NCBI GenBank assembly: GCA_020356005.1
Contig: CP070629.1
Span: forward strand, 829,558-856,733
Source: Thermoplasmata archaeon
GTDB lineage: Archaea; Thermoplasmatota; Penumbrarchaeia; JAEHCK01; GCA-020356005
Length of the DNA stretch: 27,176 nucleotides
Direction: 5' to 3'
The notes under the pieces were generated by a model. That model was given only the letters and a program-made list of their open reading frames with translations. It searched no databases and was not told where the DNA came from. The position numbers and the translations under genes are program-made. The stretch's first letter is position 1, and every line of letters begins with the position of its first letter. Shown one piece after another: positions 3,001 to 24,787 of this stretch.

Positions 3001-6000
3001 TTGAATAAAGAATATACATCCGGTGTGCAGAGCATACTATCATATGCTGGTTCAAAAGGCGGATATGAGATCAACTTAAATCAAACATCTTCAAATGCAC
3101 CAAACCAGATCGAGTTCTCGATTTCACATAATTCCTCATGGCACCACATCTCCGGTATGTCGCTGGAAGTGAATAAATGGTACAGGATCACTGCGATTCT
3201 GAACGATACGGAAGCTTCACTCTATGTGGGGTGGGAGGAGACCAAGAAGAAGCGCAGGAGTGAGGTTACCATACAGGTGGATGAACTGCAGGGTAAAATC
3301 GAGCTCGGCGGGATTTCTTTCAGTGATACCTCCTTGACCATCGGCGGCTCGAAGTTGGATACAACCAGAAATATAGAGATGTATATTGATGATTTTATTC
3401 TGACCAATGATGTGCGGCTCCCGCAGGAATACACCGAGGGTCATCCCGAGGACGGTGTCAACTGGGTCAAACGAGTTGGTAAATGGATCGCCGACTCTGG
3501 CATCGTATTCGTGAACACAAGGTACAGTCCCTTCACCGCCGTTGGCAATACAGATAAAAACTGGCCGTACAACAGGATTTCATTGGGAGCCGAGGGCTTC
3601 GGAAATATTCTGGAAACACGCTCAGTGGACGCCACAATATACAAGGATACATGGCTGGAGAATATCAAAACCGACAAAACACCCGAAGCGGCAAATATTC
3701 AAACAATATTGAGCGCGTGGGGCATTCCCTTTCCGGATTCTTTTGAGAGCGCTCAAACCTATATGACTTTGGACTCCGAGCTTGAACCTTTCTGCATACC
3801 GCTTTATAAAACGGCTGATAATGAAATTACCCATGCAATGATATTCTATGGTAAGGGAGCCATAATGTATAACGGCCTGAATAACCCCGACGCCGCCCTC
3901 ATTGCCGGCACTGCGGGTTGGTATACAGCCAAGAATATCCAGCCGCTGTATTTCATCGACTGTTCTGATGCACCCAAATCCTCAAGCAGTAAAGATTACG
4001 TGACGGAGCTGAAGAGCTCGTTTGATAAATTACAGGCGGATACGGGTATTCAATTCTATTATATTACTATCTCCAGCACCGACCAATTCTATCAATTGAT
4101 CAACTCCAACGTCAGGGATATCATTGTGGTGAACACGCACGGAGAATACCTGCCAATGCCGGCAAATTACATCAGCGGTGCATGCGTGGACGATAAAACG
4201 AATGCACTCCTGGGATTCGAGGAGGGCAGTGATATCAGCGCCTTCGATATCTCTGGCAATTACAATGACGGATTGATCGTCGGCGCTACATGGAGCACCA
4301 ATGCCCATTACGGCGATTATGCACTTGATTTCGACGGCAACGATTTTGTCGTCCTGACGCGTACGCCCAAGCTGTCGCCGAAAACCTTTACTATTGAATG
4401 CTCCGTTTATCTGAAGCAGGATTATGATAACAAGTCTGCAGCAATTATCTCAAACGAATTCCATCGTGATTCAGAACCGGGTGAAGAATACACGCATACT
4501 TACGGATATTCTCTTTACATTAATTCCAATTATACTACATTAAACAGACTGGTATTTTCATTGGGTACAAAACTGCCTGAAGTGGAGCCTCTTTATTTCG
4601 ACAGTCTGGAAAAGGAGCGGTGGTACAGGCTGGCTGCTACTTACGACGGCAGGTATATGAAGCTTTATGTCAACTATGAGGAGGTAGCTTCCAAGGTAGC
4701 GTACGGCCTCCATCCCGAAACGCTCAATAATCTGCAGATAGGTAAATGTCCCAGATACGATTACCCGATAAATGCAATAATAGATGATGTGCGGATATCG
4801 GAGGGCGCGTTATCACCTGACCAGATGCTAATAGATGTTGTGTCTCATAAGTTATGTCTGGAGGACCTGAATAGGTGGATTTCAGAGAGTAGTATTATCT
4901 GGACCAATATTGAGGGCTATGATTTCCTTTACCTGGGTTTAAAAGATCAGGACTGGCCGGATGACAGAGTCAACATTGGCTATGACGGCCTCAGTGAGTT
5001 TTCAGAGATCGGACTGCCGCCGCTTGAACTCAATACCAGATCAAACACATGCACTCTGACAGACGTTGGCGATAAAATCGATACCGATCTGGCCAGTATG
5101 ATTTTGAAATCCAGCTTCCAGAGCACTGCAAATATACCTGCCTCATACGATATGTTCACTATTCCCATCTATTCGAATGACAACGCTGTTTCGCACGGGG
5201 TGATACCCATCGGTAAGGGTAAGTTCATCCATACCGGCACCTACGATGCAGATCTGGTTGCTTCAACTGCCGCATGGTTTTTCACGAAAGGTAATGTCCA
5301 GATGATTTTCCTGGTGGACATCCCCGCAACCGTTGGCGGTACCGACCCTCTGGTTGTGGAATCCCAGCACCCTTATCCCACCAGGTTCGGAACCTCCGAG
5401 AATCTTATTGATAACCCCGGTGCGGAATCCGGCAGCATGTCGGGCTGGAAAGTCCTATTACACGGAGGTAACGGCTGGAGGGTACAGGGCGGCAGCTACG
5501 ACGGCGAAAAGCACTTCAGGACATCTTTTAACTGGTGCAAGCGTTATCAGGAGATCGATTTACTGGCAGAGGGGTACACCACCGATGAATTGAATGCTAA
5601 GCCCACCATCTATGCAGAGGAATGGTTCCACGGGTCATGGCCGAACTACGGTGATTACTACTACCTGAAAGTGGAGCTCCGCGACGCTAACCATAAAGCC
5701 ATCTCAACCTATAATTCCGGAGTACAGCGTGCAACGAACAGCTGGCAGAAGTTATCTCATACCTTCTCAGAGTACGGAGCCGGTGTGCGCTATATCTACT
5801 GGGAGGACGGCGGTGACGATGCGGAATACTGGTGGGGATATTACGGTGTAATGATCGACGGTGCGTTTTTGACCATTGACACCGCCGAGCTGGATGATAC
5901 CTGGGTTTTTTACAAGCCCGATGTGAGCAGGATCAGGGTGCATTTCGAAAAATACGAGATAGGTTCCACCGGAGATTACATCAAGGTCCTGAATAAGAAC

Positions 6001-9000
6001 GATTGTGAGCTCGCCAGGTACTCCGGTTTCGATTCCTCAGGAATGTGGACACCGTGGTGCGAAGGCGATACTGTCAAGTTGAAAATGGTAACCGGTTCCG
6101 GCCGGCACTACTGGGGTTTCAAGGTAAATAAGATCGAATATCTGACCGACGGGGTCTCCCCCATTCATCCCTACGGTAAAGCCGAGCTGATAAATAAATT
6201 GACCAATCTTGAGAACACCATGGACACCATCTGCATATTCAATGAAATTACTTCAACCGCCGAATTTGAAAAATTGGTAGAAAGCCGTCTAGAATCGCCC
6301 ATGGTCATCAATTTGCACGGCGATGCGGTGCCCGTCCCTGATTCTTATTTAACCGGAGGTGCCAGCGCCACCATACCGCCGCTGGGCTATTCGCCGGGCG
6401 GTGTAAAAGGCGAATATTACGACAACGAGGGTTTCACGAACCTGAAGGAGACCCGTGTGGACAACGAAATAAATTTCTACTGGAAATACGGCAGGCCTGT
6501 GGGTTCCGTCCATGGTGATACATTCAGCGTTAGATGGACCGGAATGCTGAGAGTCGATTTCTCAGAGGAATATACCTTCCATGTCCAGACAGATGACGGC
6601 ACCAGGTTCTGGATCGACAAGAACATGGATGGTGATTTCGACGATGCAGAAGAACTTGTAATCGATACCTGGAAGCTCCAGGCACCCACCTGGCATCAAG
6701 GTAAAATAAAGCTTACTCCCGGGTTCTATAATATCAAGTATGAATATTACGAGCATTACGGCTATGCGGTGGCAAAGCTGTTCTGGAGCTCGAAAAACAT
6801 TAAAAAGTCGGCGGTACCCGGCGAGAACCTCTATTCAAATCTGGCAACGCCGGCGGGCTACACCTCCGGCGGTCTTGAGGGTGAATATTATGATAATGCC
6901 GATTTAAAATATTTGAAGACAAAAAAAGTTGATTCAACAATCAATTTTAACTGGGGTACGGAAAGCCCGGATGCGGCCGTGGACCCTGATACATTATCGA
7001 TCAGATGGACGGGCATGGTAAAAATCGACGAGACGGGTGAATATGAGTTCTCGGTTAACACCGATGACGGGTCGAGGCTGTGGGTGAACAATCAGCAGAT
7101 CATCAATTCATGGAAGGACCAGTCCGCGCCCACTGAGTATTCCGGTAAGATCTCCTTTACGAAACCCGGTTTTTACGATATCACCTACGAATACTTCAAG
7201 AATACCGGGAGCGCTACGGCACAGCTATACTGGAAAACTCCATCCATGACGCAGGATGGTGAGCAGAAGGTAATCATTCCCTCCGATCATTTATTCAACC
7301 GCGGCGGGATATTCAGATACGCACAGGAATGGCTGAACGAGCTGGGCGATTGGGTTGCGCAGAACGGTGTGGTATATGCCAACACCAAGGATTACCCGTT
7401 CCAGTACGCCATAATCGATAACCCGCCGCCCGACAGCGGCAATCTCTGGTTCATCGGCGAAGAGGGTTTTTCGGAGTTTTTATCACCGCGCTCAGAAAGT
7501 GTAACGCTTGCACGGTACGAAGAAGGGCTCGGGATGGGCAACCTGACCCCCAACGGAAGAGCGCTCCGTGATTACCTGCCTGCGCGTACATTACCGAATT
7601 ATGTGACCGATGTACCCTACCCGCTGCCCTCAGACTATGACTGTATTCCCATCTTCCGCGACAAGGACAACAGGGATATTACCCACGGTATTATTCCCTT
7701 CGGAAGGGGTGCGTACATCCACTGCGGCGGATTCTCGGTGGATGCCTTAACCGCCATGTGTTTCATGTATTCATCTAAAAGAGACGATATGCGGTTTATC
7801 GGCGAGGTATATTACAAAGGCGAAACCGTCTGGACACAGGTACAGGTTCGCAACGATTATCCAATGGAAATGACATATGATTTTGAGCTGGTAACCCATT
7901 TCCCGGAGGAGGGGCTGCGGTCCAGGCGGATGACGGATTCGGAGATCGTTACTCTGCAGCCCGGCGAGGAGAAGACCATATACCTATCGTGGACGCCCAT
8001 CCAGCCGGATAAGATCGGTAAGTACAGCCTGGTAGTCCAGGTAATCGATCTGGAACGGCACACACTGGTAGAGATCTGGGGTAACGATATAGAGAACGAG
8101 TCTATTTCCATTAGCGTGGAGGTGGGAGCTTATATTTCGCAGCTTAAGACCAGCGATTACCTGGGATATTTCGATACTGTTGAAGTTGAGGTTACCATAA
8201 CGAACGAGATGTATATAGATAATCTATTTATCGTCAGCGGTATTTTCCAGAACAAAATCAACAAACATGTTTACTGGACGGAGGAGGAGGAACTTCCGGA
8301 GTATGAAGCCGAGGGTGGTATGGATACTACAGTGACTGTTGTATGGCATCCCTCCCAGCATAACTATCCGAACCAGACTTTTGAGCTCGGGATCTACCAG
8401 GGTACCATATTCTTAGAGGATGTTGCCAGTGCTTACTGCATACCCGATAAAAGTTATAAGACAGGTGAGCCGAAATATTTCAGGGTGAAGAAGATCATAG
8501 ATCAGAGCTCCACGGAATTCCGGATCGTGGGCCAGCTGGAAATCAATTTCCCGAAGGATATCGGGACATGGTCCATCAGCTACCACGGCGAGCTGGGCCC
8601 GTACTTCCCAATCAACCCGCAGGTCCGTGATGTGGTGCGCGTGTTCGACCCCGAGTACGATATCTGGATACGCCGCGACAGCCGGCTGGAGCTGGAGCCA
8701 GAAAGAGAGCCAGGCGGCATGATAGGCTACTGGAAGTTTGATGAATCTGTATGGACCGTGGACGCCGGCCAGGTTACCGATTCGTCGGGCAACGGGCACC
8801 ACGGCACCGCTTATAACGGTGCAAATACGGTACAGTATTCAAGATTCGGTCGATCAGCTGCCTTCAACGGGCAGAATTATGTTGTGATACCGGCCCATGA
8901 TGACATCAATGTTGGTAATAACAATGCGAACTTCAGTGTGGAATTCTGGTTCTTTTTAAAGCAGGGTCCCATCCGTTATTGGCGCAACATAATGCACAAG

Positions 9001-11541
9001 GGTAGTACGAATTCCGAGCGAACATTTGCAATGTGGATGAAGCCATGGGATAATAAAATCCATGCCCGGATAAGCACCACACACAACGTGAACGAGGGAT
9101 TTGACAGCAAGGCATACCTCCAGTTGAACTCATGGACACATGTCGCTTATGTTAAAGACGGAAACACGCTCAGTCTATACCTGAACGGTAAACTTGATAC
9201 CAAGTACACATTGGTTGGTTCTGTTGTTAACAATTCGGGACCGCTGTACATAGGGAAGGACATGTGGTACAATGGCGTTAACAGCCACATCGATGAATTG
9301 TGTCTTTACAACCGCCCCATTTATGAAGATGAGATAAAGCTGCACTATAAGAGCGGTGTAATGGAAGCTTCGGACAGGAACGCTTTCAAGCTGGGTTATT
9401 ATTCGGATTCCGGAAATGACCTGTATGCTGTGGTGAATTTTGAAAGCCAGGATGACGGCAACAGCTACCAGAAGGTTTTAAAGCTGCCCGCTGACGGCAA
9501 CTATCTAGATGTGGAACATCTGTTTGCATATTACTGGCCCGAGGGTACAACTTTAAAGATCTCGCAGGAGCCTAATTTGCAGTTCTCCGGTACGGAATAC
9601 TTCAGTTATAACGGCCCGAGACCCACCACTTTGCCTCTGGAGACCACCGTTAACGGTGTGGATTGCGCGGTACTTTACAACAGAGGTGCGGGAGTCACTT
9701 ACGATGTGGTTTTAAACGATGCGAACTTCTACAAGATCTTCATTACGGCCCAAAACTGTCCCAAGTCCGAAGCCGGCGATATAAAGCTCAGGCTGCATCT
9801 GCACTACTGGACCGGCAACCCGGCACACAAAGATTCGTTCGGTAACGTTGGATGGAAGACCAACGACGAGTCACCGAAGGATTTTGTATGGAGCGAGCGA
9901 AATGAGGAATTTGATACCAAGGAGTTCAGGCTGATACTGTCACCTGCAGGTCATTATCACATAACAATAGAGAACCTGCACGATTATTATACAAAAGATT
10001 ATGACAAGAACGCGTATATATCCGAAGTAGCGATCCGCCCGACATATGCTCTTGATATGGAAAAGCAGAAAGTAGATGAGAGCCAGATGCTGGCAAGCGG
10101 AGAGGCGGGCACACGGAGCATAAGCACCAGCAGCCGTGTGGGCGAAGATGGACCCATCGGCAACCGCAACTGTGACCTCGGTGTTCGACCCAAGAAGGTG
10201 CCGGATGAAACCATGGACTATACGTATAACGAGGTCCCCATCCCGATGTTCGGCGCCAACTACGATATGGGCAGCCCGGGCATAGAAGCTGGCGGCAGCC
10301 TACCTGTAAAATTCGGTGACCATGTAGGATTGGAAATAGAATTCGGTTTAGAGATAGATCCTACTACGGGACTGCTTCAAAAGATCTCTATCGGTATCAC
10401 ACTGGGTATCGAGGGTGAGATAGGCGGGATAGTTAAAATCGCCGCCAAGATACAGGTCCAGATAGAATTCGATGATATACTTAACACCAGCAAACCCTTT
10501 ATTGAGAAATTCAAATGGTCTGTTACTGTTGAGATCGAGGTGGGTTTCGAGATAGGTAAATTGATCTGGAAAGCGCCCATAAGCTTCGAGGTGCCGAAAC
10601 CTGGAGGAAAAGAGGGTGAAGATGAATCTCTATTGGCATTGAAACTCTGCCTGTGGATAGAGCTCGGTTTCAAGATAAGTCTGCACAGCGGAGCGAACGC
10701 CGGTGACGTCCAGATAACAGCGGGAATCTACGGCGGCATTAAATTCGAGGTCAAGTTCGAGGTCAAGATCACTCCTGATATCTTGAAGGGATTAACGCAA
10801 AAGAGTACAGATATGAGAAAGGAGAACACCAAGGCGTTAACCGATCACGCCGACCAGTCCCAGAAGGCAGAGGAATTAGAGGAAAAGCGCGAGAACAAAA
10901 TCAAGGAAATGCAAAAAGACAATAAAGATAAACCGCGCGAAGAGATCGAGAAGTTAGTAGACGAATCGCCAATGGGAAAACAGTATGCCGAGGAGCAGAA
11001 AAAGAAAGAGGATTCGTTCGCGAACCTGATGAAAAGCAGTAAAAAGTTGAGCGAATGTAATAAGTTTAAGGATATATTCGAAAAGGTTTTCGGGAAGGGC
11101 TTCAAGGATTTCCCGACCTTCCTTGAGATAGAGTTCACCATAAATTTTGTTATCGGCCTCCGCCTGGGTGTAAGCACACAGGTAGCGCCGTTCTCGCCTA
11201 CCGGTCCATACTGGAAACTGCTGTTCTACACCGAGTTCTTCTTCGCGGCTGAAATATCCTTTAAAATAATTATCAATATCTGGATCATTAAACTGGAATT
11301 CCCCATAGGCTTCAAGTTCTGGATCGACAAGATCTTCTGGATGAACAAGGTCAATATAATCGGTGCATCAGAATGGGATGACGACGGCGTTATGGGTCAG
11401 TTCATGTTCAAATGCCGCGAAAATATAGATGATGAGACCAAGGACATGATGCTGCCCGCACCCATAGGAGACGATTCAGGCTTCGAAGTGGTGTTCCTGT
11501 GGTTTAAGTTCAAGTTCTCGTTTTGTTTGGTATCTACTTGA
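1..11541 (+). CDS. Giant membrane-anchored multi-lectin surface protein (5'-incomplete, at least 3,846 codons): BNR/Asp-box-like repeats, TM hairpin with poly-E/K loop, 3x LamG, FBA, 2x PA14, CARDB-like Ig folds, C-terminal amphipathic beta-strand module
   Basis: The frame is uninterrupted from nt 1 to the TGA at 11539-11541. Codons 1-9 (acc ccg ata) contain no stop, so the TTG at nt 10 in the ORF track is probably not the real start and the gene likely continues upstream. Recognisable motifs occur along the whole length: SSDGLNW Asp-box, GEYYDN...SVRWTG PA14 signatures, LamG 'IDDVRIS/IDELCLYNR' endings, and an FBA signature. All antisense ORFs inside it look like shadow ORFs. Confidence 0.9.
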   Translation, partial: TPILNDDEDNDYEPSLLYTADEFLLVWVSNEFDQYTFMGSTDENLITYSVSSDGLNWNDPESVHPRYCQESTPYLSVDSIGRILLTWSSDRMDFEEAEDERDHDKDIWYSTYAAGEWAVPSALTSDPANDESPSMFQKGNGDYWTVWSRDDRIFYSTTDELPPPVNAFGSAINVPIDRWREEFDYTYEDEISNTFWIYNYGERDLTGKITASQGFTLNKFEFAIAPGENISFTVTLNAKDEGRYLGVVEILSNDEIAPRISIPLYVKITSSEFEESEKDIGEGVGPEEEEAEEEGEEDFQRVLILLTALVIILLLIFIVMRREEKKAAEEKKKEDEEEEEEKEEEEGEEKEGEEGEEEGEGEEEEEGGEEEEGESKGEEGSEVEEDAASDEDVKTEEKEPEDKGAAKAKPKRKRAVKPLMVFGAFFSIMILLLSNCSGAANMMVLAQDSDIPQSEIPKISENDPGEFWTWVPYYDQSGEESNLEMHSEYYDDEGTYPPDWVEYGSSLSLRQLVEMPFPVEKLRFWMRHDEGSGPVGVEITENVSSKVAAGTEYFWADYSSSSYDWCEVNVSTSKITNVLGGGSYYIHLTPPMDILTEGEMYGVNRIGTVKLNDTPIPPAHIVYKTLYDAEVDFAQRGTDKYQHIFWTSKIDDTVLIDEFFMDYDYYDDLNPQYMSDSLWYTDNDFNMKMELYIKAEMFNSANVFQPSYPGYENAEIAGKINIVNPFSDQENFTVRVGLLGPDGTEYNVLNEEHKIKYGTNLQLDYSYFTEAKLPAGDYNVLAGIYLTDIYEGEYLVMADKWGDTDYELEKTKFSIINTTPIMDVTLIDKLKSDVVDGKIPVYYLKCSDAPGHKPPRSIQSEMDNIQERFDSLESVLGVDFEHKDITSTREFLELVESDVKDAIVVNYHSDLLPIPSSFARGEYVDLNTIVRYYFDENNGTTVYDRSKYINDADFVGNPAWTQEKYQGASALYFDGSNDMLEIDDDITLKTPRFTIQFWLYLNKEYTSGVQSILSYAGSKGGYEINLNQTSSNAPNQIEFSISHNSSWHHISGMSLEVNKWYRITAILNDTEASLYVGWEETKKKRRSEVTIQVDELQGKIELGGISFSDTSLTIGGSKLDTTRNIEMYIDDFILTNDVRLPQEYTEGHPEDGVNWVKRVGKWIADSGIVFVNTRYSPFTAVGNTDKNWPYNRISLGAEGFGNILETRSVDATIYKDTWLENIKTDKTPEAANIQTILSAWGIPFPDSFESAQTYMTLDSELEPFCIPLYKTADNEITHAMIFYGKGAIMYNGLNNPDAALIAGTAGWYTAKNIQPLYFIDCSDAPKSSSSKDYVTELKSSFDKLQADTGIQFYYITISSTDQFYQLINSNVRDIIVVNTHGEYLPMPANYISGACVDDKTNALLGFEEGSDISAFDISGNYNDGLIVGATWSTNAHYGDYALDFDGNDFVVLTRTPKLSPKTFTIECSVYLKQDYDNKSAAIISNEFHRDSEPGEEYTHTYGYSLYINSNYTTLNRLVFSLGTKLPEVEPLYFDSLEKERWYRLAATYDGRYMKLYVNYEEVASKVAYGLHPETLNNLQIGKCPRYDYPINAIIDDVRISEGALSPDQMLIDVVSHKLCLEDLNRWISESSIIWTNIEGYDFLYLGLKDQDWPDDRVNIGYDGLSEFSEIGLPPLELNTRSNTCTLTDVGDKIDTDLASMILKSSFQSTANIPASYDMFTIPIYSNDNAVSHGVIPIGKGKFIHTGTYDADLVASTAAWFFTKGNVQMIFLVDIPATVGGTDPLVVESQHPYPTRFGTSENLIDNPGAESGSMSGWKVLLHGGNGWRVQGGSYDGEKHFRTSFNWCKRYQEIDLLAEGYTTDELNAKPTIYAEEWFHGSWPNYGDYYYLKVELRDANHKAISTYNSGVQRATNSWQKLSHTFSEYGAGVRYIYWEDGGDDAEYWWGYYGVMIDGAFLTIDTAELDDTWVFYKPDVSRIRVHFEKYEIGSTGDYIKVLNKNDCELARYSGFDSSGMWTPWCEGDTVKLKMVTGSGRHYWGFKVNKIEYLTDGVSPIHPYGKAELINKLTNLENTMDTICIFNEITSTAEFEKLVESRLESPMVINLHGDAVPVPDSYLTGGASATIPPLGYSPGGVKGEYYDNEGFTNLKETRVDNEINFYWKYGRPVGSVHGDTFSVRWTGMLRVDFSEEYTFHVQTDDGTRFWIDKNMDGDFDDAEELVIDTWKLQAPTWHQGKIKLTPGFYNIKYEYYEHYGYAVAKLFWSSKNIKKSAVPGENLYSNLATPAGYTSGGLEGEYYDNADLKYLKTKKVDSTINFNWGTESPDAAVDPDTLSIRWTGMVKIDETGEYEFSVNTDDGSRLWVNNQQIINSWKDQSAPTEYSGKISFTKPGFYDITYEYFKNTGSATAQLYWKTPSMTQDGEQKVIIPSDHLFNRGGIFRYAQEWLNELGDWVAQNGVVYANTKDYPFQYAIIDNPPPDSGNLWFIGEEGFSEFLSPRSESVTLARYEEGLGMGNLTPNGRALRDYLPARTLPNYVTDVPYPLPSDYDCIPIFRDKDNRDITHGIIPFGRGAYIHCGGFSVDALTAMCFMYSSKRDDMRFIGEVYYKGETVWTQVQVRNDYPMEMTYDFELVTHFPEEGLRSRRMTDSEIVTLQPGEEKTIYLSWTPIQPDKIGKYSLVVQVIDLERHTLVEIWGNDIENESISISVEVGAYISQLKTSDYLGYFDTVEVEVTITNEMYIDNLFIVSGIFQNKINKHVYWTEEEELPEYEAEGGMDTTVTVVWHPSQHNYPNQTFELGIYQGTIFLEDVASAYCIPDKSYKTGEPKYFRVKKIIDQSSTEFRIVGQLEINFPKDIGTWSISYHGELGPYFPINPQVRDVVRVFDPEYDIWIRRDSRLELEPEREPGGMIGYWKFDESVWTVDAGQVTDSSGNGHHGTAYNGANTVQYSRFGRSAAFNGQNYVVIPAHDDINVGNNNANFSVEFWFFLKQGPIRYWRNIMHKGSTNSERTFAMWMKPWDNKIHARISTTHNVNEGFDSKAYLQLNSWTHVAYVKDGNTLSLYLNGKLDTKYTLVGSVVNNSGPLYIGKDMWYNGVNSHIDELCLYNRPIYEDEIKLHYKSGVMEASDRNAFKLGYYSDSGNDLYAVVNFESQDDGNSYQKVLKLPADGNYLDVEHLFAYYWPEGTTLKISQEPNLQFSGTEYFSYNGPRPTTLPLETTVNGVDCAVLYNRGAGVTYDVVLNDANFYKIFITAQNCPKSEAGDIKLRLHLHYWTGNPAHKDSFGNVGWKTNDESPKDFVWSERNEEFDTKEFRLILSPAGHYHITIENLHDYYTKDYDKNAYISEVAIRPTYALDMEKQKVDESQMLASGEAGTRSISTSSRVGEDGPIGNRNCDLGVRPKKVPDETMDYTYNEVPIPMFGANYDMGSPGIEAGGSLPVKFGDHVGLEIEFGLEIDPTTGLLQKISIGITLGIEGEIGGIVKIAAKIQVQIEFDDILNTSKPFIEKFKWSVTVEIEVGFEIGKLIWKAPISFEVPKPGGKEGEDESLLALKLCLWIELGFKISLHSGANAGDVQITAGIYGGIKFEVKFEVKITPDILKGLTQKSTDMRKENTKALTDHADQSQKAEELEEKRENKIKEMQKDNKDKPREEIEKLVDESPMGKQYAEEQKKKEDSFANLMKSSKKLSECNKFKDIFEKVFGKGFKDFPTFLEIEFTINFVIGLRLGVSTQVAPFSPTGPYWKLLFYTEFFFAAEISFKIIINIWIIKLEFPIGFKFWIDKIFWMNKVNIIGASEWDDDGVMGQFMFKCRENIDDETKDMMLPAPIGDDSGFEVVFLWFKFKFSFCLVST
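904..1302 (+). other. Internal transmembrane hairpin: TM1 (VLILLTALVIILLLIFIVM), ~95-aa poly-Glu/Lys loop, TM2 (MVFGAFFSIMILLLS) that resembles a signal peptide
   Basis: Two hydrophobic ~19-aa and ~16-aa stretches sit at nt 904-960 and 1258-1302. Both have basic residues on the loop side (RREEKK after TM1, KAKPKRKRAVKP before TM2). The loop is an almost pure purine (GAR) tract on the + strand. Confidence 0.75.
2791..3432 (+). other. LamG/concanavalin-A-like lectin domain 1 (Laminin_G_3-like)
   Basis: YYFDENNGTTVYDRS...ALYFDGSNDMLEI...FTIQFWLYL...WYRITAI...LYVG...MYIDDFILTN. This is the pattern typical of LamG_3 domains in prokaryotic surface proteins. Confidence 0.75.
4204..4827 (+). other. 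LamG/concanavalin-A-like lectin domain 2
   Basis: LLGFEEGSDISAFDISGNYNDGLIVGATW...ALDFDGNDFVVL...FTIECSVYL...WYRLAATYDGRYMKLYVN...IIDDVRISEGALSPDQM. Confidence 0.8.
5401..5877 (+). other. FBA domain (F-box-associated / Fbs1-FBXO2 type sugar-binding domain)
   Basis: NLIDNPGAESGSMSGWKVLLHGGNGWRVQ...FRTSFNWCKRYQEIDLLAEGY...YYLKVELRD...WQKLSHTFSEYGAGVRYIYWEDGGDDAEYWWGYYGVMIDGA. This aligns block for block with my recollection of the FBXO2 sugar-binding domain: NLLRNPCGEEDLEGW...HGGDGWRVEE...FASSFEWCRKAQVIDLQAEGY...YELTVKLL...WMEISHTFTDYGPGVRFVRFEHGGQDSVYWKGWFGARVT. Confidence 0.8.
6397..6795 (+). other. PA14 domain 1
   Basis: GGVKGEYYDNEGFTNLKETRVDNEINFYW...DTFSVRWTGMLRVDFSEEYTFHVQTDDGTRFWID...GFYNIKYEYYEHYGYAVAKLFWSS. 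This is the canonical PA14 signature. Confidence 0.9.
6868..7245 (+). other. PA14 domain 2
   Basis: GGLEGEYYDNADLKYLKTKKVDSTINFNWG...DTLSIRWTGMVKIDETGEYEFSVNTDDGSRLWVNNQQII...GFYDITYEYFKNTGSATAQLYWKTPS. Confidence 0.9.
8725..9360 (+). other. LamG/concanavalin-A-like lectin domain 3
   Basis: GYWKFDES...VTDSSGNGHHGTAYNGA...AAFNGQNYVVIP...FSVEFWFFL...WTHVAYVKDGNTLSLYLNGKL...LYIGKD...IDELCLYNRPIYEDEIKLHY. Confidence 0.85.
10234..11538 (+). other. C-terminal amphipathic beta-strand module (two blocks) split by a ~105-aa K/E-rich coiled-coil-like insert (nt ~10801-11118)
   Basis: There are runs of strict hydrophobic/polar alternation: GLEIEFGLEID, ISIGITLGIEGEIGG, IQVQIEFD, WSVTVEIEVGFEIG, LCLWIELGFKISLH, IKFEVKFEVKIT, LEIEFTINFVIGLRLGV, EISFKIIINIWIIKLEF, FEVVFLWFKFKFSF. 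I do not recognise a family signature. Confidence 0.6.
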
Positions 11542-11744: not shown

Positions 11745-11778
11745 TATTATGGTAAATATATATAATATTGTGGTAAAT
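11745..11778 (+). promoter_or_regulatory. Candidate operator/promoter of the VapBC-like pair: two 13-nt direct repeats (TATTATGGTAAAT / TATTGTGGTAAAT) 21 nt apart within an A/T-rich TATA-like tract
   Basis: The repeats are at 11745-11757 and 11766-11778 and match at 12 of 13 positions. The second ends at the proposed TTG start. AbrB/SpoVT-type antitoxins typically autoregulate through repeated operators. Confidence 0.35.
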
Positions 11779-12029
11779 TGGAATTTATTAAAATCGACCA
11801 AACGGGTAAAATCTACCTGCCTAAAGTCATACGAAACAAAATAGATACCCGCAGTAAATATTTGGTAATTACCCTGCCGGACGGCGATGTGATTCTTCAT
11901 AAAATTAAAAGGTCAAAGAATCCTATACGTGATTTTCAGAAAGCATGGTCCACAGGAAAGGATATTGCAGAGATAAGAAAGGATATTCTGGATGAAGCCG
12001 TTAAACTTGCTGGAGAACGCGGTGATTGA
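11778..12029 (+). CDS. AbrB/SpoVT-fold antitoxin (VapB-like)
   Basis: The N-terminus (M)EFIKIDQTGKIYLPKVIRNKID...LVITLPDGDVILHKI is the swapped-hairpin AbrB/MazE/SpoVT motif. The gene is 83 aa, lies directly upstream of a PIN gene and overlaps it. The start is a TTG and is uncertain. Confidence 0.75.
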   Translation: MEFIKIDQTGKIYLPKVIRNKIDTRSKYLVITLPDGDVILHKIKRSKNPIRDFQKAWSTGKDIAEIRKDILDEAVKLAGERGD

Positions 12030-12408
12030 GTTGTATGCCGATACCGATTTTTTTCTGGCATTAATAAAAAAAGATGATTGGTTGAAGAAACGGGCGGAAA
12101 AACTTTATAAAAAACATCAAAATGAATTGTGGACATCTACATTGACTATTAAAGAATTAATGCTTTTAGCATATCGTGATAATAAGGATGTTACAGATAT
12201 TATCGAAAAAGCTTCCGCTTTAATGCCGGTTAAGGAGGTAGATATCGGTGTGGAAGGGCATATTGCCGCCAGCTTTTTAATTAAAAAATATAAAATGACG
12301 CCCTTCGATGCATTACATGCAGTTATTTGTGATAATGATTCAATTATCAGTTCAGATAAAAAATATGATTTGATAGGGCTCAATAGAATTACGTTAGAAA
12401 AAGAATAG
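12022..12408 (+). CDS. PIN-domain ribonuclease toxin (VapC-like)
   Basis: It carries the N-terminal acidic motif YADTDFFLAL and the later FDALHAV and ISSDKKYD motifs typical of PIN domains. I prefer the GTG at 12022: GGAGAA lies 4-5 nt upstream, it overlaps the antitoxin stop by 8 nt, and the first conserved Asp falls at residue 7-9. The ORF-track ATG at 11992 is the alternative. Confidence 0.75.
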   Translation: MIELYADTDFFLALIKKDDWLKKRAEKLYKKHQNELWTSTLTIKELMLLAYRDNKDVTDIIEKASALMPVKEVDIGVEGHIAASFLIKKYKMTPFDALHAVICDNDSIISSDKKYDLIGLNRITLEKE

Positions 12409-12532
12409 ATAAAACTGAGATTGGGAATCCGAACCAATTTTTCTCCAAATTTATAAAAACAACAAAGAATTTAATAGTCTATAATGCAATAATGTGGGTA
12501 ATCTTCCGATTATATTCATGGAGCTCTTTGTG

Positions 12533-14665
12533 ATGAAAATCAAGATCAACCGGATATTGTTATTGATTATTGCATTCATATTGATCTTCGCCGCGGTTGG
12601 CAGCGCTGTTATTTACAGATTCTATTTGCAGCCTGAGGAGGAGGAGGCGGAGACGCTCAAAATCGGTGTGCTGCTGCCCCTGAGCGGCCCCGAAGCTGTT
12701 AATTCATATGAGGTGCTGGATTGGGCTGCGGGCAATATCAATTCGCAGGGCGGAATAAAAGAATATCAAATCGAGCTGGTGTACAAAGACACCTATAACC
12801 ATGACCTGGCATTGCTGGCAGATGAGTTCATACAGGACGAATCCATTAAAATCGTGATCGGGCCGGGCACAAGTTCAGGTGTGTTCGATATTGCGCCTAT
12901 GTTCATTGCCAATAAAAAAATTCTTATCAGTGCATTTTCCACTGCAGCCGATGTATTCAACGCCTTCGGCGGTAAGAACTACATATGGCGCACCTGCCAA
13001 TCCGATGTTGCACAGATACGAACCATTCTGCATATACTCGACTCCAGAAATGTACAGAAAATATCGTTGATGTACGAGAACTCGGTTTACGGGAAGTCCT
13101 TCTATGATTGGACCGGTTTTTTTTCGCTGGAACTGGGAATAGAATTATTGAATCTGGTGGAATTCGAGTACGGGCAGAGCGATTTTTCCGAGGATGTGAA
13201 AACTGCTCTGGAGGGTGATCCCGACTATATCGTTTGTGTCGCATTCTCATCGGATGTAGTGGAGATCAAGAAGGAGCTGGATTTGACCGGCAGCTCAGCC
13301 AAGCTCTTCCTCACGGACGCAGGCGAGACGCCGTATTTGATCAGCGACCTAGGACAAGCAGCCGAGGGGCTGGAAGGTACCACCCCCTCTGCAGATCCCG
13401 CTGCGGGTTTCGAGGCAGTTTATCAAACCGAGCTTGGAAACCCGCCCAACAATATAGCAGCCACAACCTACGATGCGTTCCTGCTCGCACTATATACCCA
13501 CGCCAGACAACTTCATACGGGCGGCTCGGAGGGATTAGATGAATCCATAAAAAAAGTTGTTAGTGGTAACGATACGAAAGTGGGCTGGAGGAAAGAGGAT
13601 GTGGGAGCTGCCGTAGAAATGATTTTGAAAGGAGAGCTCCCGGACATCTCAGGCGTTTCGGGGCCATTGGAATTCGATTCCGAATTCGGCTGCGATCCCC
13701 TTGAAACCTTCTTCAATCACTGGCAGGTATCGGGCGGCGAGTTTCAAAGCCAAGATTCGATCAGTTCGGCTGCATCCTTACATGCAGGAGCAGTTAAATC
13801 AGGTGCTTCCGCATGCAGAACTTCGGGCAGCGCTGAAATTGGTAAAATAGAGGACACAACCGGCACAACGAACGGTCAACTCGCTGCCAGGAAGGATTCC
13901 TGGGCCGTAATTGTCTCTACCAGCACAGACTGGGACAATTACCGTCACCAAGCAGACGCTCTTGCTGTTTACAATATGTTGAAAACCAACGGTATGAGCG
14001 ATGATAAGATTATATTGTTAACGGTGGACGACATACCTGACCATGAGCGTAACAAAAAGCAAGGAGACATACACCACGAGATTAGTGGTACAAATCTCCG
14101 GTTGGATGCAGAGATCGATTATTCTGGTAATGATGTTACCTCCAAGATCTTCCGAAATGTATTAACAGGTAAAAAAACCGCCAGGACACCCACCGTGTTG
14201 GAATCCGATGAGAACAGCAATGTGTTTGTGTATATAGTAGACCACGGCGGCCAGGGCACCATACCCTTTGATAACGGCGGAACACTAAAGGCAGATACAT
14301 TGAAGAATTCTATAGTCGGTATGGACAATGACAATATGTTCCGGCAGATGTTTGTTATTATCGAGACATGTTTTTCTGAGAGCATGACCGCCGATATCGA
14401 GACCCCCGAAGTTGTTTTTTTGACCTCCGCAGCAGAGGACGAGCCCTCATTTGCTGCGAATTACGATTCTGAGATCGGGGCATGGCTGGCGGACGACTGC
14501 ACCTACCAGGTGGTTTCCACACTATCGGAGAATAAAGATATTTCCATAATGGAACTGTATGATGATACATATCCCAAGATCACCGGGTCGCACGTAAGAT
14601 TAAAAAACTATAACAGCTTCAGTAATGTTGAGAGCACGCCGGTAAGCGATTTCATCATGCCGTAA
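12533..14665 (+). CDS. Membrane-anchored fusion protein: type-I periplasmic binding protein (LivK/ANF-receptor-like) domain + C13 legumain-family cysteine peptidase domain
   Basis: The N-terminus MKIKINRILLLIIAFILIFAAVGSAVIY is a signal anchor. LKIGVLLPLSGPEAV...GGI...IELVYKDT...KIVIGPGTSS is the PBP1/Peripla_BP_6 pattern. The C-terminal half matches legumain block by block, including the His and Cys of the catalytic dyad: WAVIVSTSTDWDNYRHQADALAVY...DDI...DYSGNDVT..F.NVLTG...VFVYIVDHGG...MFVIIETCFSESM...SHV. The start at 12533 has GGAG 8 nt upstream. The ORF track begins at the GTG at 12494. Confidence 0.85.
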   Translation: MKIKINRILLLIIAFILIFAAVGSAVIYRFYLQPEEEEAETLKIGVLLPLSGPEAVNSYEVLDWAAGNINSQGGIKEYQIELVYKDTYNHDLALLADEFIQDESIKIVIGPGTSSGVFDIAPMFIANKKILISAFSTAADVFNAFGGKNYIWRTCQSDVAQIRTILHILDSRNVQKISLMYENSVYGKSFYDWTGFFSLELGIELLNLVEFEYGQSDFSEDVKTALEGDPDYIVCVAFSSDVVEIKKELDLTGSSAKLFLTDAGETPYLISDLGQAAEGLEGTTPSADPAAGFEAVYQTELGNPPNNIAATTYDAFLLALYTHARQLHTGGSEGLDESIKKVVSGNDTKVGWRKEDVGAAVEMILKGELPDISGVSGPLEFDSEFGCDPLETFFNHWQVSGGEFQSQDSISSAASLHAGAVKSGASACRTSGSAEIGKIEDTTGTTNGQLAARKDSWAVIVSTSTDWDNYRHQADALAVYNMLKTNGMSDDKIILLTVDDIPDHERNKKQGDIHHEISGTNLRLDAEIDYSGNDVTSKIFRNVLTGKKTARTPTVLESDENSNVFVYIVDHGGQGTIPFDNGGTLKADTLKNSIVGMDNDNMFRQMFVIIETCFSESMTADIETPEVVFLTSAAEDEPSFAANYDSEIGAWLADDCTYQVVSTLSENKDISIMELYDDTYPKITGSHVRLKNYNSFSNVESTPVSDFIMP

Positions 14666-14844: not shown

Positions 14845-16284
14845 TCATCGCTCCCTGTATCCCATCTGCTCGCGAACTGTGGGCGGTTTGTATTTCGATT
14901 TCTCAAGATCGAATTTTGCCGTGTATGCCATTTGATTTAACGACTCCGCCAGGAACTCGAACTCGTCACCGGTATTGACCTCAATTTTGTGTTCAAGCTG
15001 TTTCTTCTGCATTGCGTCTGCACCATCTTTAAGTAGAAAAATCGGTCTGGTGATTGACCTGCCCACCAGTATGGACAGAACAGAAATTACAGCAAGAGCA
15101 ATTATGACAAAAAGAATGGATATGTTGAACGCCTCACCCAGCTGTTCGTCGATATAGTCGCTGGCGTTCCCTGTGGCATTTGTTATTTTACCTTCGATCT
15201 CCACAGCGGGTGCGATTATTTCGGCAATGGGCATAACAAATGCGACGCTCCAGCCGGTGCTCTCTATCGGCGCGTAAGCGAAATATTTCTCACCCTCCTC
15301 CAGTTCACACCGACTGATCCCAGAATTGCCCGTTGTCATATCCTCGCCTATGGCTTTTAAATCCGGGTTCGTACTCTCCAGCAGATTCTCAAGCTCAAAG
15401 GATTCGTCCCACATTTTATCCTCAGCCTGCAGGCCCGGCCGGGCGATTATATTACCGTTATTGTCCACAAGTATCCCGTAACCGGTTTCACCAACCTGCG
15501 GTTTAATAATATCGGAATTGATGGTTTTTATGGTAATATCCGCCGCCACCACCCAGAAATAATCTGTGCTGGTGGAGTACACAGGTGCGGAGCATGTTAT
15601 CATCAGCTCGTTCGTACCCACATCCAGGTACGGGCTCGTCCAGGATATCCCGCCCGACTCTACCGCATTTGTATACCAATCCCGCACCCTGGGATCGTAC
15701 GTTGGATCTATTCCGGTATCCCACGGATAAATCCTGGCAAAACCGGAACCGGTCCCGATATAAATCCATTCTACATAGGGATCGTTGGAATAAGTGGGTA
15801 TGAAAATATTATCGAGAACACTTGAAAGGTCCAGTTCAGCTCTAACATTATCTGCAGACACACCGGGGGCCAGCACATATACGGAATCTTCGAAAATATC
15901 TTCAGGCTGCTCGTTTTGTGAATATGAATATTTATATTGAAACGATGATGAATTATCGATAAGAGTGGCGGCGAATTCAGACACTATGCTTACTTCCGAT
16001 TCTATCTTTTCGAACAGCATATTTCCGAAAGCTGCTTGACCTTTTGCCAATCTTACCAGGTTATCCTCGGCTTGTGACTCTAGAGCAGTTGTGCTGTCGT
16101 CCACGGCGCTGTCGCCAAGTTCTGTGCACCGGTCAATAGTATAATCACCGCTCTCCTCTAAATTATCTAGAGAGAAATATCCGAAGAAAATTAATGAAAT
16201 CAGAGAAAATACCAAGAAAACTATCAGGATTTTTGTTCGTATCTTCATTTTGATTCTTGATTTCTGTGTCATAAAAACCACCAT
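14845..16284 (-). CDS. Membrane sensor with extracytoplasmic Cache-like domain and HAMP domain, no output domain (paralogue of the N-terminal two-thirds of the adjacent PP2C phosphatase)
   Basis: It has TM1 (ILIVFLVFSLISLIFFGYF), a ~330-aa periplasmic region, TM2 (ISILFVIIALAVISVLSILV) and a HAMP-like stretch (RPIFLLKDGADAMQKKQLEHKIEVNTGDEFEFLAESLNQMA). By eye it is collinear and roughly half identical with residues ~30-470 of the 17112-19286 product. It ends about 30 aa after HAMP. Confidence 0.8.
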   Translation of the reverse strand: MVVFMTQKSRIKMKIRTKILIVFLVFSLISLIFFGYFSLDNLEESGDYTIDRCTELGDSAVDDSTTALESQAEDNLVRLAKGQAAFGNMLFEKIESEVSIVSEFAATLIDNSSSFQYKYSYSQNEQPEDIFEDSVYVLAPGVSADNVRAELDLSSVLDNIFIPTYSNDPYVEWIYIGTGSGFARIYPWDTGIDPTYDPRVRDWYTNAVESGGISWTSPYLDVGTNELMITCSAPVYSTSTDYFWVVAADITIKTINSDIIKPQVGETGYGILVDNNGNIIARPGLQAEDKMWDESFELENLLESTNPDLKAIGEDMTTGNSGISRCELEEGEKYFAYAPIESTGWSVAFVMPIAEIIAPAVEIEGKITNATGNASDYIDEQLGEAFNISILFVIIALAVISVLSILVGRSITRPIFLLKDGADAMQKKQLEHKIEVNTGDEFEFLAESLNQMAYTAKFDLEKSKYKPPTVREQMGYRER

Positions 16285-16290
16285 ACTTAA

Positions 16291-16626
16291 CTACTTAAGC
16301 ATTTTTTCTGCATCTTTAACATTACTGCAGCATTTAAAAAGAGAGGTAAAGCCTGTTATATCAAAAACCTCCTTCACCTGAGGTTGCAGTCCCACAAGCA
16401 CAAGCTCACCATCATTCTTCTTCGTCTCCTTCAAACCTGCCAGTAGAACTCTTAAACCGGCACTGCTGATGAAATCTACATCTTTCATATCGATAATAAG
16501 CTTAAATTTCTTATCGGAAATGATCGAATTCAACCTGGATTCGAGATCCAGAGCCGTATTGGCATCGATTTTACCCTTTACAATTACAAGGCCCAGGTCT
16601 CGTTTCGTTTTAAAATCCAATTCCAT
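16291..16626 (-). CDS. STAS-domain anti-sigma-factor antagonist-like protein (RsbV/SpoIIAA family)
   Basis: LVIVKGKIDANTALDLE...IIDMKDVDFISSAGLRVLL...LVLVGLQPQVKEVFDITGF is the classic STAS pattern and includes the phosphorylatable Ser in DFISSAG. I chose the ATG at 16626 because AGGAGGA lies 5-6 nt upstream. The track start at 16656 would overlap the upstream gene. Confidence 0.85.
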   Translation of the reverse strand: MELDFKTKRDLGLVIVKGKIDANTALDLESRLNSIISDKKFKLIIDMKDVDFISSAGLRVLLAGLKETKKNDGELVLVGLQPQVKEVFDITGFTSLFKCCSNVKDAEKMLK

Positions 16627-16645
16627 ACTAGTTCCTCCTGATCGG

Positions 16646-17071
16646 CTATTTACCAATATATTTGATCATTGTTAATTCATTCCCTGCATCTGCATCAAAG
16701 GTATAATCCAGTTTATCGATATAAGCTTTCATTAAGAAAATTCCGAGCCCGCCTATTTTTCGCTTCTCCAAAGGCGCTTTCGTATCCGGTTCGGGTACAC
16801 TTTTTGGATCGAAGGACTTGCCCTTATCCCTGATAATGATCTTGAATTCATTGCCGGAACCGGAGCAGTCAATAATAATCGGCCCAGCTGTTCCGGGATA
16901 TGCATGTTTCATTATATTGGTACATGCCTCGTCCACTGCCACCTGCACCTCAAATATCTCCTTTTCGGACCCGAACCCGAGGCTCTTCATGGCATCCGCT
17001 ATAAAGTCCCTGACCTCAGGGAGATTTTCAAGTTTACTCGCAACTTCAAGATGTAATTTCTGATCTTCCAT
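16646..17071 (-). CDS. RsbW/SpoIIAB-like serine protein kinase (HATPase_c, anti-sigma-factor family)
   Basis: N-box EACTNIMKHAY, G1-like IIRDKGKSFDP and G2 IGGLGIFLM. The 141-aa size and the position directly upstream of the STAS gene fit this family. Confidence 0.85.
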   Translation of the reverse strand: MEDQKLHLEVASKLENLPEVRDFIADAMKSLGFGSEKEIFEVQVAVDEACTNIMKHAYPGTAGPIIIDCSGSGNEFKIIIRDKGKSFDPKSVPEPDTKAPLEKRKIGGLGIFLMKAYIDKLDYTFDADAGNELTMIKYIGK

Positions 17072-17111
17072 GTGTATTATCCATCCCGGATCTTTGATTA
17101 AGATATATAAT

Positions 17112-24479: not shown

Positions 24480-24787
24480 TGCTGGGAGCAGATGGGCGAT
24501 TTACGCCGTCTTGGTGATGGTGAGGAAAGTCCCCACTCCTTTAAGCATGCGGTCCGGCGCAAGCCGGATGCCCGAGAGGGCAGGCTCTGGAGCAGAAACG
24601 TAACCTGTGGTGGTTATACTATGATTTACTTTCAAAGTGATGAGGTTCCCTCCGTTCAGGCTGAAACGGCCATTCCCCGCTGGTGCAAGTTCAAATGTAT
24701 CGGGATGACGTGCTTACAGACCGGAAGGTAGAACGCATAGTCCAATATCGCCTGAAACAGAATGGGGCTTACAACCTGCACCCAGCA
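24480..24787 (+). ncRNA. rnpB: RNase P RNA (compact, type A-like; probably archaeal)
   Basis: Universal CR-I GAGGAAAGUCC is at 24522-24532 and CR-V ACAGAAUGGGGCUUAC is at 24757-24772. Together they form helix P4 (AAGUCCCC / GGGGCUU). Terminal helix P1 pairs UGCUGGG (24480-86) with CCCAGCA (24781-87). There is an internal CCGGC-GCAA-GCCGG tetraloop hairpin. Oligo-T follows immediately. Confidence 0.9.

Follow-up and report, generated by a model that had tools for sequence, protein, structure and literature searches.

The C-terminal module of a giant archaeal surface protein is tentatively explained as a tip domain that bears a coiled-coil arm and forms a 'beta-sheet bilayer', either buried within itself or by self-association. 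The analyzed window is a 27,176-nucleotide stretch from a Thermoplasmata archaeon, and the protein is encoded on its + strand (1-11541) by a reading frame (frame +1) that is open from nt 1, has its 5' end beyond the window and closes with a stop codon at 11539-11541, giving at least 3846 aa. The encoded part contains an Ig-like (ASH) domain, a predicted transmembrane (TM) helix (aa 302-320), a poly-Glu stretch and a second TM or signal-like segment (aa 415-446). These are followed by the lectin-type domains (three LamG_3, two PA14 and one FBA), which separate the TM segments from the module at the C-terminus. It is a sugar-binding, lectin-rich surface protein. As no other TM helices are predicted, approximately 3000-3400 residues separate these two segments from the module, and the C-terminal end of the protein was found to have neither a classical TM helix nor a sorting signal. 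That the host is an archaeon, as originally presumed, is backed by an archaeal RNase P RNA in the window (24484-24783) and by neighboring proteins identical to Thermoplasmata MAG entries.

The module stands out by its regular alternation of apolar (VILMFWCY) and polar (all other) residues, which was counted in strict runs of at least 7 residues. The region aa 3412-3846 (nt 10234-11538, 435 residues) contains 12 such runs covering 122 residues, and none of 2000 shuffles reached this number (mean 23.8, sd 13.2). Elsewhere in the protein, segments of 435 aa have a mean of 37 and a maximum of 73 residues in runs. The original prediction of at least nine alternating stretches is therefore borne out, and the strings GLEIEFGLEID, WSVTVEIEVGFEIG, IKFEVKFEVKIT and FLWFKFKFSF which it named are all located in the module. 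Within the module, 29.5% of the residues are in alternating runs (41% when the helices are left out), the longest run is 17 residues and three runs reach at least 13. By comparison, E. coli OmpT, OmpF, OmpA, TamA, the ElfC usher and the Ag43 beta-domain have 4-23% of their residues in runs, with the longest run at 7-11 in the barrel controls, at most 11 in the whole set and none of at least 13. TamB has 15% (z = 5.6), and the LamG and FBA domains of the giant protein itself have 0%. The alternation in the module is longer and more regular than in outer-membrane barrels, TamB or its own beta-sandwich domains.

The two faces created by this alternation differ strongly. The apolar face is about 85% VILMFWCY (I29, F22, L17, V13, W2, Y0), its columns are 83% hydrophobic across the four family members, and its stripes of 14-25 residues span each strand from end to end. 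The polar face is about 39% charged, and Gly makes up 13-14% of it vs about 3% of the apolar face. The description of the strands as Glu-studded holds for this protein (9.9% E) but not for the family, as the three homologues have 4.6-5.3%. What the aligned family members conserve is the alternation of apolar and polar residues together with polar-face Gly, and not Glu.

An AlphaFold2 monomer model without any partner, built on an alignment of the four sequences, reached moderate confidence (pLDDT 73, pTM 0.55), and the secondary structure was identical in two runs. According to this model, the module is predicted to fold autonomously as an antiparallel meander of about 410 aa with around ten unusually long amphipathic strands. 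The module was rightly recognized as a separate C-terminal unit, but its structured part begins only at about aa 3434 (nt 10300), and nt 10234-10299 belong to a linker. This conserved linker (10057-10299, + strand, low model confidence) joins the preceding beta-sandwich ('ISEVAIRP') to the module and shares the motifs CDLGxxPKK (10171-10197) and VPIPxFGA (10234-10257) with homologue P0001. Beta block 1 (10300-10770, +) consists of six antiparallel amphipathic strands of 14-23 residues by AlphaFold2 and face analysis, S1 aa 3434-3452, S2 3459-3474, S3 3478-3491, S4 3504-3519, S5 3541-3563 and S6 3570-3590. Its best-conserved motif, G[RK][LM][IM]W[KG][AF]PI (here GKLIWKAPI, 10555-10581, +), opens the loop of 21 aa that connects S4 to S5 and faces the same way as the helical hairpin.

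The K/E-rich antiparallel hairpin of about 110 aa (10774-11109, +) is inserted between S6 and S7, and its helices (aa 3592-3640 and 3646-3703) have the highest confidence within the model. The K/E/Q-rich helical segment of about 105 aa expected at nt 10801-11118 comprises 106 aa, of which K makes up 21.7%, E 15.1% and D 8.5%, and is modeled as these two long helices. Helix 1 has a hydrophobic period of 3.6 residues in 4/4 family members, and a conserved KKLSEC motif is found at 11041-11064. Beta block 2 (11122-11361, +) has three very long strands of 22-25 residues (S7 aa 3708-3729, S8 3737-3760, S9 3763-3787) and includes WIDKIFWMNK at 11320-11349. It is followed by an acidic, Asp-rich loop or small subdomain of 39 aa (11362-11478, +) that includes one short strand and one short helix, and carries the invariant motif [WF]D[DN]DG, here WDDDG at 11374-11388. 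The terminal aromatic strand GFEVVFLWFKFKFSFCLVST and the stop codon (11479-11541, +) close the module, with model confidence below 50. Face analysis and AlphaFold2 thus agree with the predicted order of beta-hairpins with one apolar face, a coiled-coil hairpin between them and an aromatic strand last.

The I/F/L/V face is continuous and comprises about 85 side chains, or roughly 45 x 65 Å if the sheet is flat. It cannot be turned toward water, and our favored reading, at low confidence, is that the protein itself buries it. We propose that the six strands of block 1 and the three or four of block 2 would pack against each other, or curl, with their faces together. This arrangement would resemble synthetic (FKFE)n peptides, which form a 'beta-sheet bilayer'. 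The outcome would be a rod with a charged exterior, where the coiled-coil hairpin of about 7 nm projects from one end and the conserved acidic WDDDG loop lies at the opposite end. The alternation would then be the mark of a buried core and not of a lipid-facing belt. The end-to-end apolar stripes, the alternation kept in 4/4 members and the moderately confident monomer model are consistent with self-burial, as are the missing aromatic girdle, the distant TM helices and the lectin-type domains in between. Conservation adds to this, although values from a four-sequence alignment are weak evidence: in block 1 the polar face scores lower than the apolar face (BLOSUM 1.06 vs 1.60), which fits a solvent-exposed surface above a core, the pattern of soluble proteins. 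Block 2 has a second face with 40% hydrophobic residues, which is conserved better than any other surface (2.13 vs 1.43, from the same four sequences and equally weak) and suggests that this block may be covered on both sides. Strands of 20-25 residues are, however, rare in soluble sandwiches, and no soluble fold is found among the Foldseek matches. The concentration of Gly on the polar face also argues against self-burial, as it would be expected if that face lined the crowded interior of a barrel whose apolar face points outward. With an alignment of four sequences, the AlphaFold2 model is weak evidence, as are the conservation contrasts. The sequence pattern, the secondary structure, the conservation and the lack of homologues are results of the analysis, and from them we infer how the module packs, how it is oriented relative to the cell and what it does.

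The same apolar face could instead be shared between molecules. Sheets of two or more copies would then form an intermolecular beta-sheet bilayer, with the hairpins adding contacts, and would either tie several giant proteins together at their far ends or connect neighboring cells into a matrix. We regard this as rather unlikely, even though the face is very large and regular, the length of the hairpin is conserved, and strings such as IKFEVKFEVKIT and FKFKFSF are similar to (FKFE)n peptides, which self-assemble. The low confidence of the terminal strand in the monomer model is also what is expected of a strand that adds to another chain. However, the monomer is already modeled with moderate confidence, and the helices have a single sparse hydrophobic seam (16-31% hydrophobic), which is enough for a hairpin but not for a larger bundle.

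Only three relatives of the module were found among 1.84 billion representative proteins, giving a family of four. Pfam, NCBIfam, PHROGs and PDB sequences gave no match for the module region or its relatives, and a look for autotransporter, aerolysin, MACPF or Tc relationships gave no family signal. Weak Foldseek matches in PDB and BFVD were to the outer-membrane barrels OmpU, Pla, OmpT, OpcA, NalP and FecA (best E-value 7e-4; probability 0.96 for FecA), with TM-scores of 0.13-0.24 by query and at most 0.40 by target and an rmsd of 8-27 Å. Since they cannot be superimposed, and TM-scores against 10- and 12-stranded barrels are at most 0.4, these hits reflect a local, wall-like similarity and not a barrel match. 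Neither a confident soluble sandwich or solenoid nor clear homology to a known soluble domain emerged when looked for.

These neighbors bring up the original prediction of a membrane-inserting barrel or pore. Here the apolar face would point outward into lipid and the E/K/G face would line a water-filled lumen, in a monomer of about ten strands or an oligomer, either as an anchor in an outer envelope or inserted into the membrane of a partner cell. The family-wide Gly enrichment on the polar face fits this, as does the fact that the module forms the C-terminus of a protein with a huge, adhesin-like passenger and no classical C-terminal anchor. Counting the terminal strand, the strand number is even, so that both chain ends come to lie on the same side as the hairpin. 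A second membrane has also been reported, on weak evidence, for some Thermoplasmata relatives (PMC4243693), which counts for a barrel as well. Still, we consider a barrel rather unlikely, and membrane insertion, though compatible with part of the evidence, was not confirmed. The apolar stripes of 14-25 residues far exceed the belt of about 10 residues in real barrels, an aromatic girdle is missing as the apolar face has almost no Tyr or Trp, and the C-terminal aromatic signal of barrels is kept in 1/4 members. Opposite the passenger, the acidic loop of 39 aa and another one of 12 aa would need to cross the membrane. The low TM-scores, the less conserved polar face of block 1 and the lack of any match to OMP, autotransporter or pore-forming-toxin families point the same way, and a family of four is not a general anchoring device. 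The archaeal host is a further objection, as no barrel-assembly machinery is known in archaea.

Microsomal triglyceride transfer protein, also among the weak Foldseek matches, is in line with a sheet curved with its apolar side inward as a groove or tube for lipids or apolar ligands, like repeating-beta-groove (RBG)/AsmA-like, TULIP or LptA-type proteins, or alternatively lying on a hydrophobic surface like apoB-type amphipathic sheets. In general terms the module matches the description of RBG units, in which long amphipathic strands form a meander that leads into a helical element and the exterior is hydrophilic (PMC7613979). The alternation in TamB is likewise significant, and the apolar face is purely aliphatic plus Phe. 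We nevertheless hold a groove to be quite unlikely. AsmA, TamB and Chorein gave no family match even at E = 10, and the six strands with a hairpin returning on the same side differ from the five strands and crossing element of RBG units (PMC7613979). In addition, a single unit of about 45 Å is no bridge, and the second face of block 2, which is also apolar and conserved, is more in line with packing than with an open groove. If a groove were nevertheless present, the giant protein could use its tip to bind the lipid of a partner cell or a particle, or to extract it.

Collectively, the sequence searches indicate that the module is a new orphan, unclassified domain confined to a narrow lineage. 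If the apolar face is self-buried as we tentatively propose, the module would be neither a membrane anchor nor a pore. It would instead form the far tip of the giant protein and have a structural or contact role, where the hairpin and the conserved loops may mediate protein-protein or partner binding.

The alternation of hydrophobic and polar residues in the last ~410 aa of the giant ORF (from ~aa 3434; hereafter the module) far exceeds that of shuffled sequences. Between aa 3412 and 3846, 122 residues belong to 12 runs of strict alternation, each at least 7 residues long; shuffles placed 23.8±13.2 residues in such runs and reached 122 in 0 of 2000 cases, and the maximum of the same statistic in other windows of the giant protein was 73. 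All alternating strings quoted in the original prediction are present, and the helical segment that it placed at nt 10801-11118 contains 21.7% K and 15.1% E. E. coli K-12 proteins and the LamG and FBA domains of the giant protein itself served as controls. In OmpT, OmpF, OmpA, TamA, the ElfC usher and the Ag43 beta-domain, 4-23% of residues alternate and the longest runs are 7-11 residues; the corresponding values are 15% and 11 for TamB, which has a lipid groove, and 0% and 0 for the LamG and FBA domains, and none of these controls has a run of 13 or more. The module reaches 29.5% (41% without its helices), with a longest run of 17 and three runs of at least 13. The alternation lies beyond every control class, and the pattern is therefore real and more extreme than in the controls. 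The module is a clean, conserved sequence outlier, with strands longer and more regular than those of outer-membrane barrels, lipid-bridge proteins and ordinary sandwiches.

Two AlphaFold2 runs, made with a four-sequence alignment of the module family, agreed in secondary structure. The mean confidence was pLDDT 59 for a 513-aa construct, and pLDDT 73 with pTM 0.55 for the trimmed aa 3433-3846. The model contains six strands of 14-23 residues each (S1-S6, aa 3434-3590; block 1), a hairpin of two long helices (aa 3592-3640 and 3646-3703) that is its best-confidence part, three strands of 22-25 residues each (S7-S9, aa 3708-3787; block 2), a 39-aa Asp-rich loop that includes one short strand and one short helix, and, at low confidence, a terminal aromatic strand at the C-terminal end. 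These predictions support the amphipathic beta-hairpins and the coiled coil proposed originally. Helix 1 shows a hydrophobic period of 3.6 residues in all four homologues and has 16-30% hydrophobic residues, which suffices for a two-helix hairpin. The apolar face of the strands consists of about 85% VILMFWCY (I29, F22, L17, V13, W2, Y0) and spans each strand end to end, forming a stripe of 14-25 residues; W or Y occupies only 2 of its 101 positions. On the polar face, about 39% of residues are charged and 13-15% are Gly. An internal duplication relating block 1 to block 2 was considered and rejected (hhalign probability 1%).

Searching 1.84 billion representative proteins exhaustively with HMMER, we found three relatives of the module. 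P0001 is a contig-truncated fragment of 569 aa from another Thermoplasmata MAG, 36% identical, which shares the upstream domain and linker; P0003 (593 aa) comes from a JGI metagenome and P0002 (371 aa) from an ENA assembly. An in-frame stop lies right before the first strand of P0002 (contig L003, 1-400), with upstream fragments in another frame; P0002 may therefore be truncated, pseudogenised or misassembled. No additional relatives were found in GTDB genomes or JGI metagenome contigs. A viral or plasmid origin of the module was rejected, as IMG/VR contigs, INPHARED phages and PLSDB plasmids contain no relative. Of two profile searches, the one with alignment A1 gave no match, probably because low-complexity words took up its capped candidate list, and the one with alignment A2 recovered P0002 alone.

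The layout is kept in all three relatives, and the four proteins share the motifs G[RK][LM][IM]W[KG][AF]PI, KKL[SN]E, D[KA]I[FMV]W[YM]NK and [WF]D[DN]DG. Alternation is significant in 4/4 members, more weakly in P0002 and P0003. The description of the strands as Glu-studded holds for the window protein (9.9% Glu), but not for the other three (4.6-5.3%). Over the four proteins together, hydrophobic residues fill 83% of the apolar columns, and Gly makes up 11% of the polar and 2.6% of the apolar face. Among these four sequences, the apolar face of block 1 is more conserved than its polar face, and in block 2 conservation is higher on the second face, of which 40% is hydrophobic.

Neither single sequences nor the profile gave a significant match in Pfam, NCBIfam, PHROGs or PDB sequences. 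The module belongs to none of the families tested and makes up a new orphan domain family. In the last ~430 aa, Pfam returned nothing except DUF6603 (PF20248), which was rejected at 11-11.8 bits (11.8 bits in this search) against a gathering threshold of 27, with E = 0.087-0.15 over a 50-aa stretch in one of the four members; no literature on DUF6603 exists. Weak matches to PHROG families (scaffold protein, head protease) and to Pfam families (Laminin_I, Syntaxin_2 and others) are confined to the K/E-rich helices and were rejected because they are composition-driven. The top profile match among PDB sequences, TatC at E = 0.49, was dismissed as noise. Foldseek searches of PDB and BFVD matched no soluble fold and returned outer-membrane barrels only (OmpU, OmpK36, Pla, OmpT, OpcA, NalP and FecA), at E values of 7e-4 or worse, TM scores of at most 0.24 (query) and 0.40 (target), and rmsd of 8-27 Å. 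These hits show local similarity, of long hairpin-connected strands, and do not amount to a fold match.

That every Foldseek neighbour is a barrel nevertheless favours the reading that the module inserts in a membrane as a barrel or pore, which we regard as unlikely. The module resembles the omptins OmpT and Pla, OpcA, and the autotransporter translocators NalP and Ag43 beta-domain in its antiparallel amphipathic meander, tight hairpins and Gly on the polar face; the strand number becomes even once the terminal strand is counted, and, as in autotransporter-type barrels, it sits C-terminally behind a very large adhesin-like passenger. The passenger has no other C-terminal anchor: a hydropathy scan of the giant ORF found TM-like helices only at aa 302-320 and 415-446, either side of a poly-Glu stretch, and after aa 446 no hydrophobic 19-mer over threshold except part of strand S8, and the last 513 aa have no NCBIfam match to an archaeal sorting or anchor signal (PGF-CTERM and similar). 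Some Thermoplasmata relatives are also reported, on weak evidence, to have a double membrane (PMC4243693).

Against membrane insertion, the module lacks a sequence-family match to these barrels, its TM scores do not exceed 0.4, and its apolar stripe is far more regular and about twice as long as a membrane belt; the belt of 9-11 residues per strand with Tyr/Trp girdles typical of outer-membrane barrels is absent. A C-terminal beta-signal with a final aromatic is likewise not conserved, since only P0001 ends in F (window protein ...FSFCLVST, P0002 ...FGKE, P0003 ...FSKA). A 110-aa hairpin breaks the strands, and the 39-aa acidic loop and a 12-aa loop, on the side opposite to the passenger and hairpin, would need to cross the membrane. 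Furthermore, block 1 is conserved as in a soluble protein, the host is archaeal, and only four members are known. Of the original interpretation, the amphipathic hairpins and coiled coil stand and the membrane or assembly role is conjectural, with the stripe length and the missing girdle and conserved C-terminal aromatic among the features that speak against a barrel of the classical type.

As to the autotransporter-like version of this reading, neither the autotransporter domain PF03797 nor the trimeric anchor PF03895 was detected anywhere in the protein (E <= 0.1) or in the four family members (E <= 10). The model has six strands, a hairpin and three to four strands, an order that differs from a closed 12-stranded barrel (or four strands per chain) directly behind a pore-filling helix; the NalP translocator aligns to it with TM 0.15 (query) and 0.20-0.23 (target). 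Homology to pore-forming toxins or Tc/Rhs cocoons, for which a check was proposed originally, was not borne out: there was no Pfam match for aerolysin/ETX-MTX2, leukocidin, MACPF/CDC or Tc/Rhs families, and of these perforin-2 alone appeared in Foldseek (E = 0.12, TM 0.07). The stems of beta-pore-forming toxins such as alpha-haemolysin, aerolysin and anthrax PA are alternating apolar/polar hairpins with Gly-rich strands; each protomer contributes one hairpin, with a Ser/Thr-rich polar face, whereas the module has about ten strands in one chain and an E/K-rich face.

In water, a flat sheet could not leave some 85 I/F/L/V side chains exposed; something has to cover the apolar face, whether lipid, another copy or the remainder of the domain. 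Our tentative preference is the last of these, with the module as a self-buried "beta-sheet bilayer" tip domain carrying a coiled-coil arm, although we hold this with less than even confidence. In (FKFE)n and EAK16 peptides, alternation drives two sheets to bury their apolar faces together, and the module strings IKFEVKFEVKIT, VEIEVGFEIG and FKFKFSF alternate apolar and charged residues likewise; the module differs in being natural, hairpin-linked, 400 aa long and non-repetitive, with conserved loops and a helical insert. Burial against another copy, i.e., oligomerisation of the module, would account for some of the observations but seems to us doubtful.

Cover by lipid in an RBG/AsmA-like groove, or binding to some hydrophobic surface, is rather improbable, although a lipid groove likewise agrees with some of the observations. 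In RBG/AsmA-like units, a beta meander that is hydrophobic on one face and hydrophilic on the other leads into a helical element, each RBG unit having five strands and a sixth element that crosses the groove (PMC7613979). The lipid bridges TamB, YhdP and VPS13 thus share the two-faced meander and helical element with the module, and the alternation in TamB is also significant. The module differs in having six strands and a returning hairpin, one or two units instead of a long bridge, and a longest run of 17 versus 11 in TamB; moreover, AsmA, TamB/DUF490 and Chorein_N gave no Pfam match at E <= 10. In architecture only, membrane-fusion (periplasmic adaptor) proteins of the HlyD/AcrA type are also comparable, as the halves of their beta domain are split in sequence by a long antiparallel helical hairpin. 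Their split domain is, however, a small lipoyl sandwich with short strands in periplasmic bacterial proteins, and the module has no Pfam match to it. What probability remains falls to some other explanation.

The giant ORF is already open at nt 1 and ends with a stop codon at 11539-11541, encoding at least 3846 aa. Pfam identifies an Ig-like ASH domain (aa 209-259), three Laminin_G_3 (LamG_3) domains, two PA14 domains and an F-box-associated (FBA, PF04300) sugar-binding domain (aa 1800-1958, window 5398-5874; E = 1.7e-30). FBA is known mainly as a eukaryotic domain, and here a strong match lies inside an archaeal surface protein beside the PA14 and LamG_3 domains. An unassigned module without a Pfam match occurs three times in the passenger (~2536-2750, ~3961-4165 and ~6304-6350), always before a lectin-type domain, with the signature "...CSDAP..." followed ~55 aa later by "VVN(Y/T)H..LP(I/M)P"; the third copy reads "VINLHGDAVPVP". 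At window 904-1338 (aa 302-446), the TM helix at aa 302-320 precedes ~100 aa of poly-Glu/Gly, after which aa 415-446 combine a KRKR motif with a hydrophobic segment ending in "LLSNCSG". This region resembles a surface protein's C-terminal anchor that continues in frame, without a stop, into the signal peptide of the next such protein; it may be a genuine two-TM fusion, or reflect a lost stop or an assembly artefact. Candidate internal starts are a GTG at 1246 and an ATG at 1258.

The presumed archaeal host is supported by a full-length archaeal RNase P RNA gene (RF00373, RNase P_arch; 24484-24783, + strand, 207 bits) and by two neighbouring proteins identical to "Thermoplasmata archaeon" MAG entries on a 3.58-Mb contig, which has proteins UCH89593 to UCH89596 close by. 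Downstream of the giant gene, an 83-aa ORF (11778-12029), AbrB/VapB-like at its N-terminus, overlaps the 5' end of a PIN-domain gene (11992-12408); 11778-12408 is probably a VapBC toxin-antitoxin pair placed between the giant gene and a PBP + Peptidase_C13 gene, and the corresponding spacer in the related contig L001 is 164 bp. Two legumain-type Peptidase_C13 proteins are encoded at 12494-14665 (+) and 21686-24055 (-), one fused to a periplasmic-binding domain (Peripla_BP_6) and the other carrying bacterial Ig-like domains. A 60%-identical orthologue of the PBP + Peptidase_C13 gene also lies 3' of the giant-gene homologue in L001. A functional tie to this gene found no support: the gene is conserved beside P0001 alone, P0002 and P0003 having other neighbours, and the adjacency is therefore plain synteny of close relatives. 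Further along (14845-19289, -), genes for a Cache-HAMP sensor, a STAS protein, an HATPase_c_2 (anti-sigma-like) kinase and a Cache-HAMP-SpoIIE/PP2C phosphatase stand in a row, which is a bacterial-type partner-switching set in an archaeon.

To our knowledge, no transmembrane beta-barrel protein is established in Archaea, and little has been established about the ways in which giant surface proteins of Archaea stay attached to the cell or make contact with partner cells. It is a long shot that the module is the first beta-barrel-type membrane-active element in Archaea, i.e., an autotransporter- or toxin-like device tipping a giant lectin-studded fibre and inserting its apolar strands in an outer envelope layer or in the membrane of a symbiont, host or prey cell to dock, fuse or open a channel. 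If the module is membrane-active, Archaea would have a new mechanism of envelope attachment or cell contact; if it is instead a self-buried or self-associating "beta-sheet bilayer" rod, it would count as a new natural fold that protein design might use as a scaffold.
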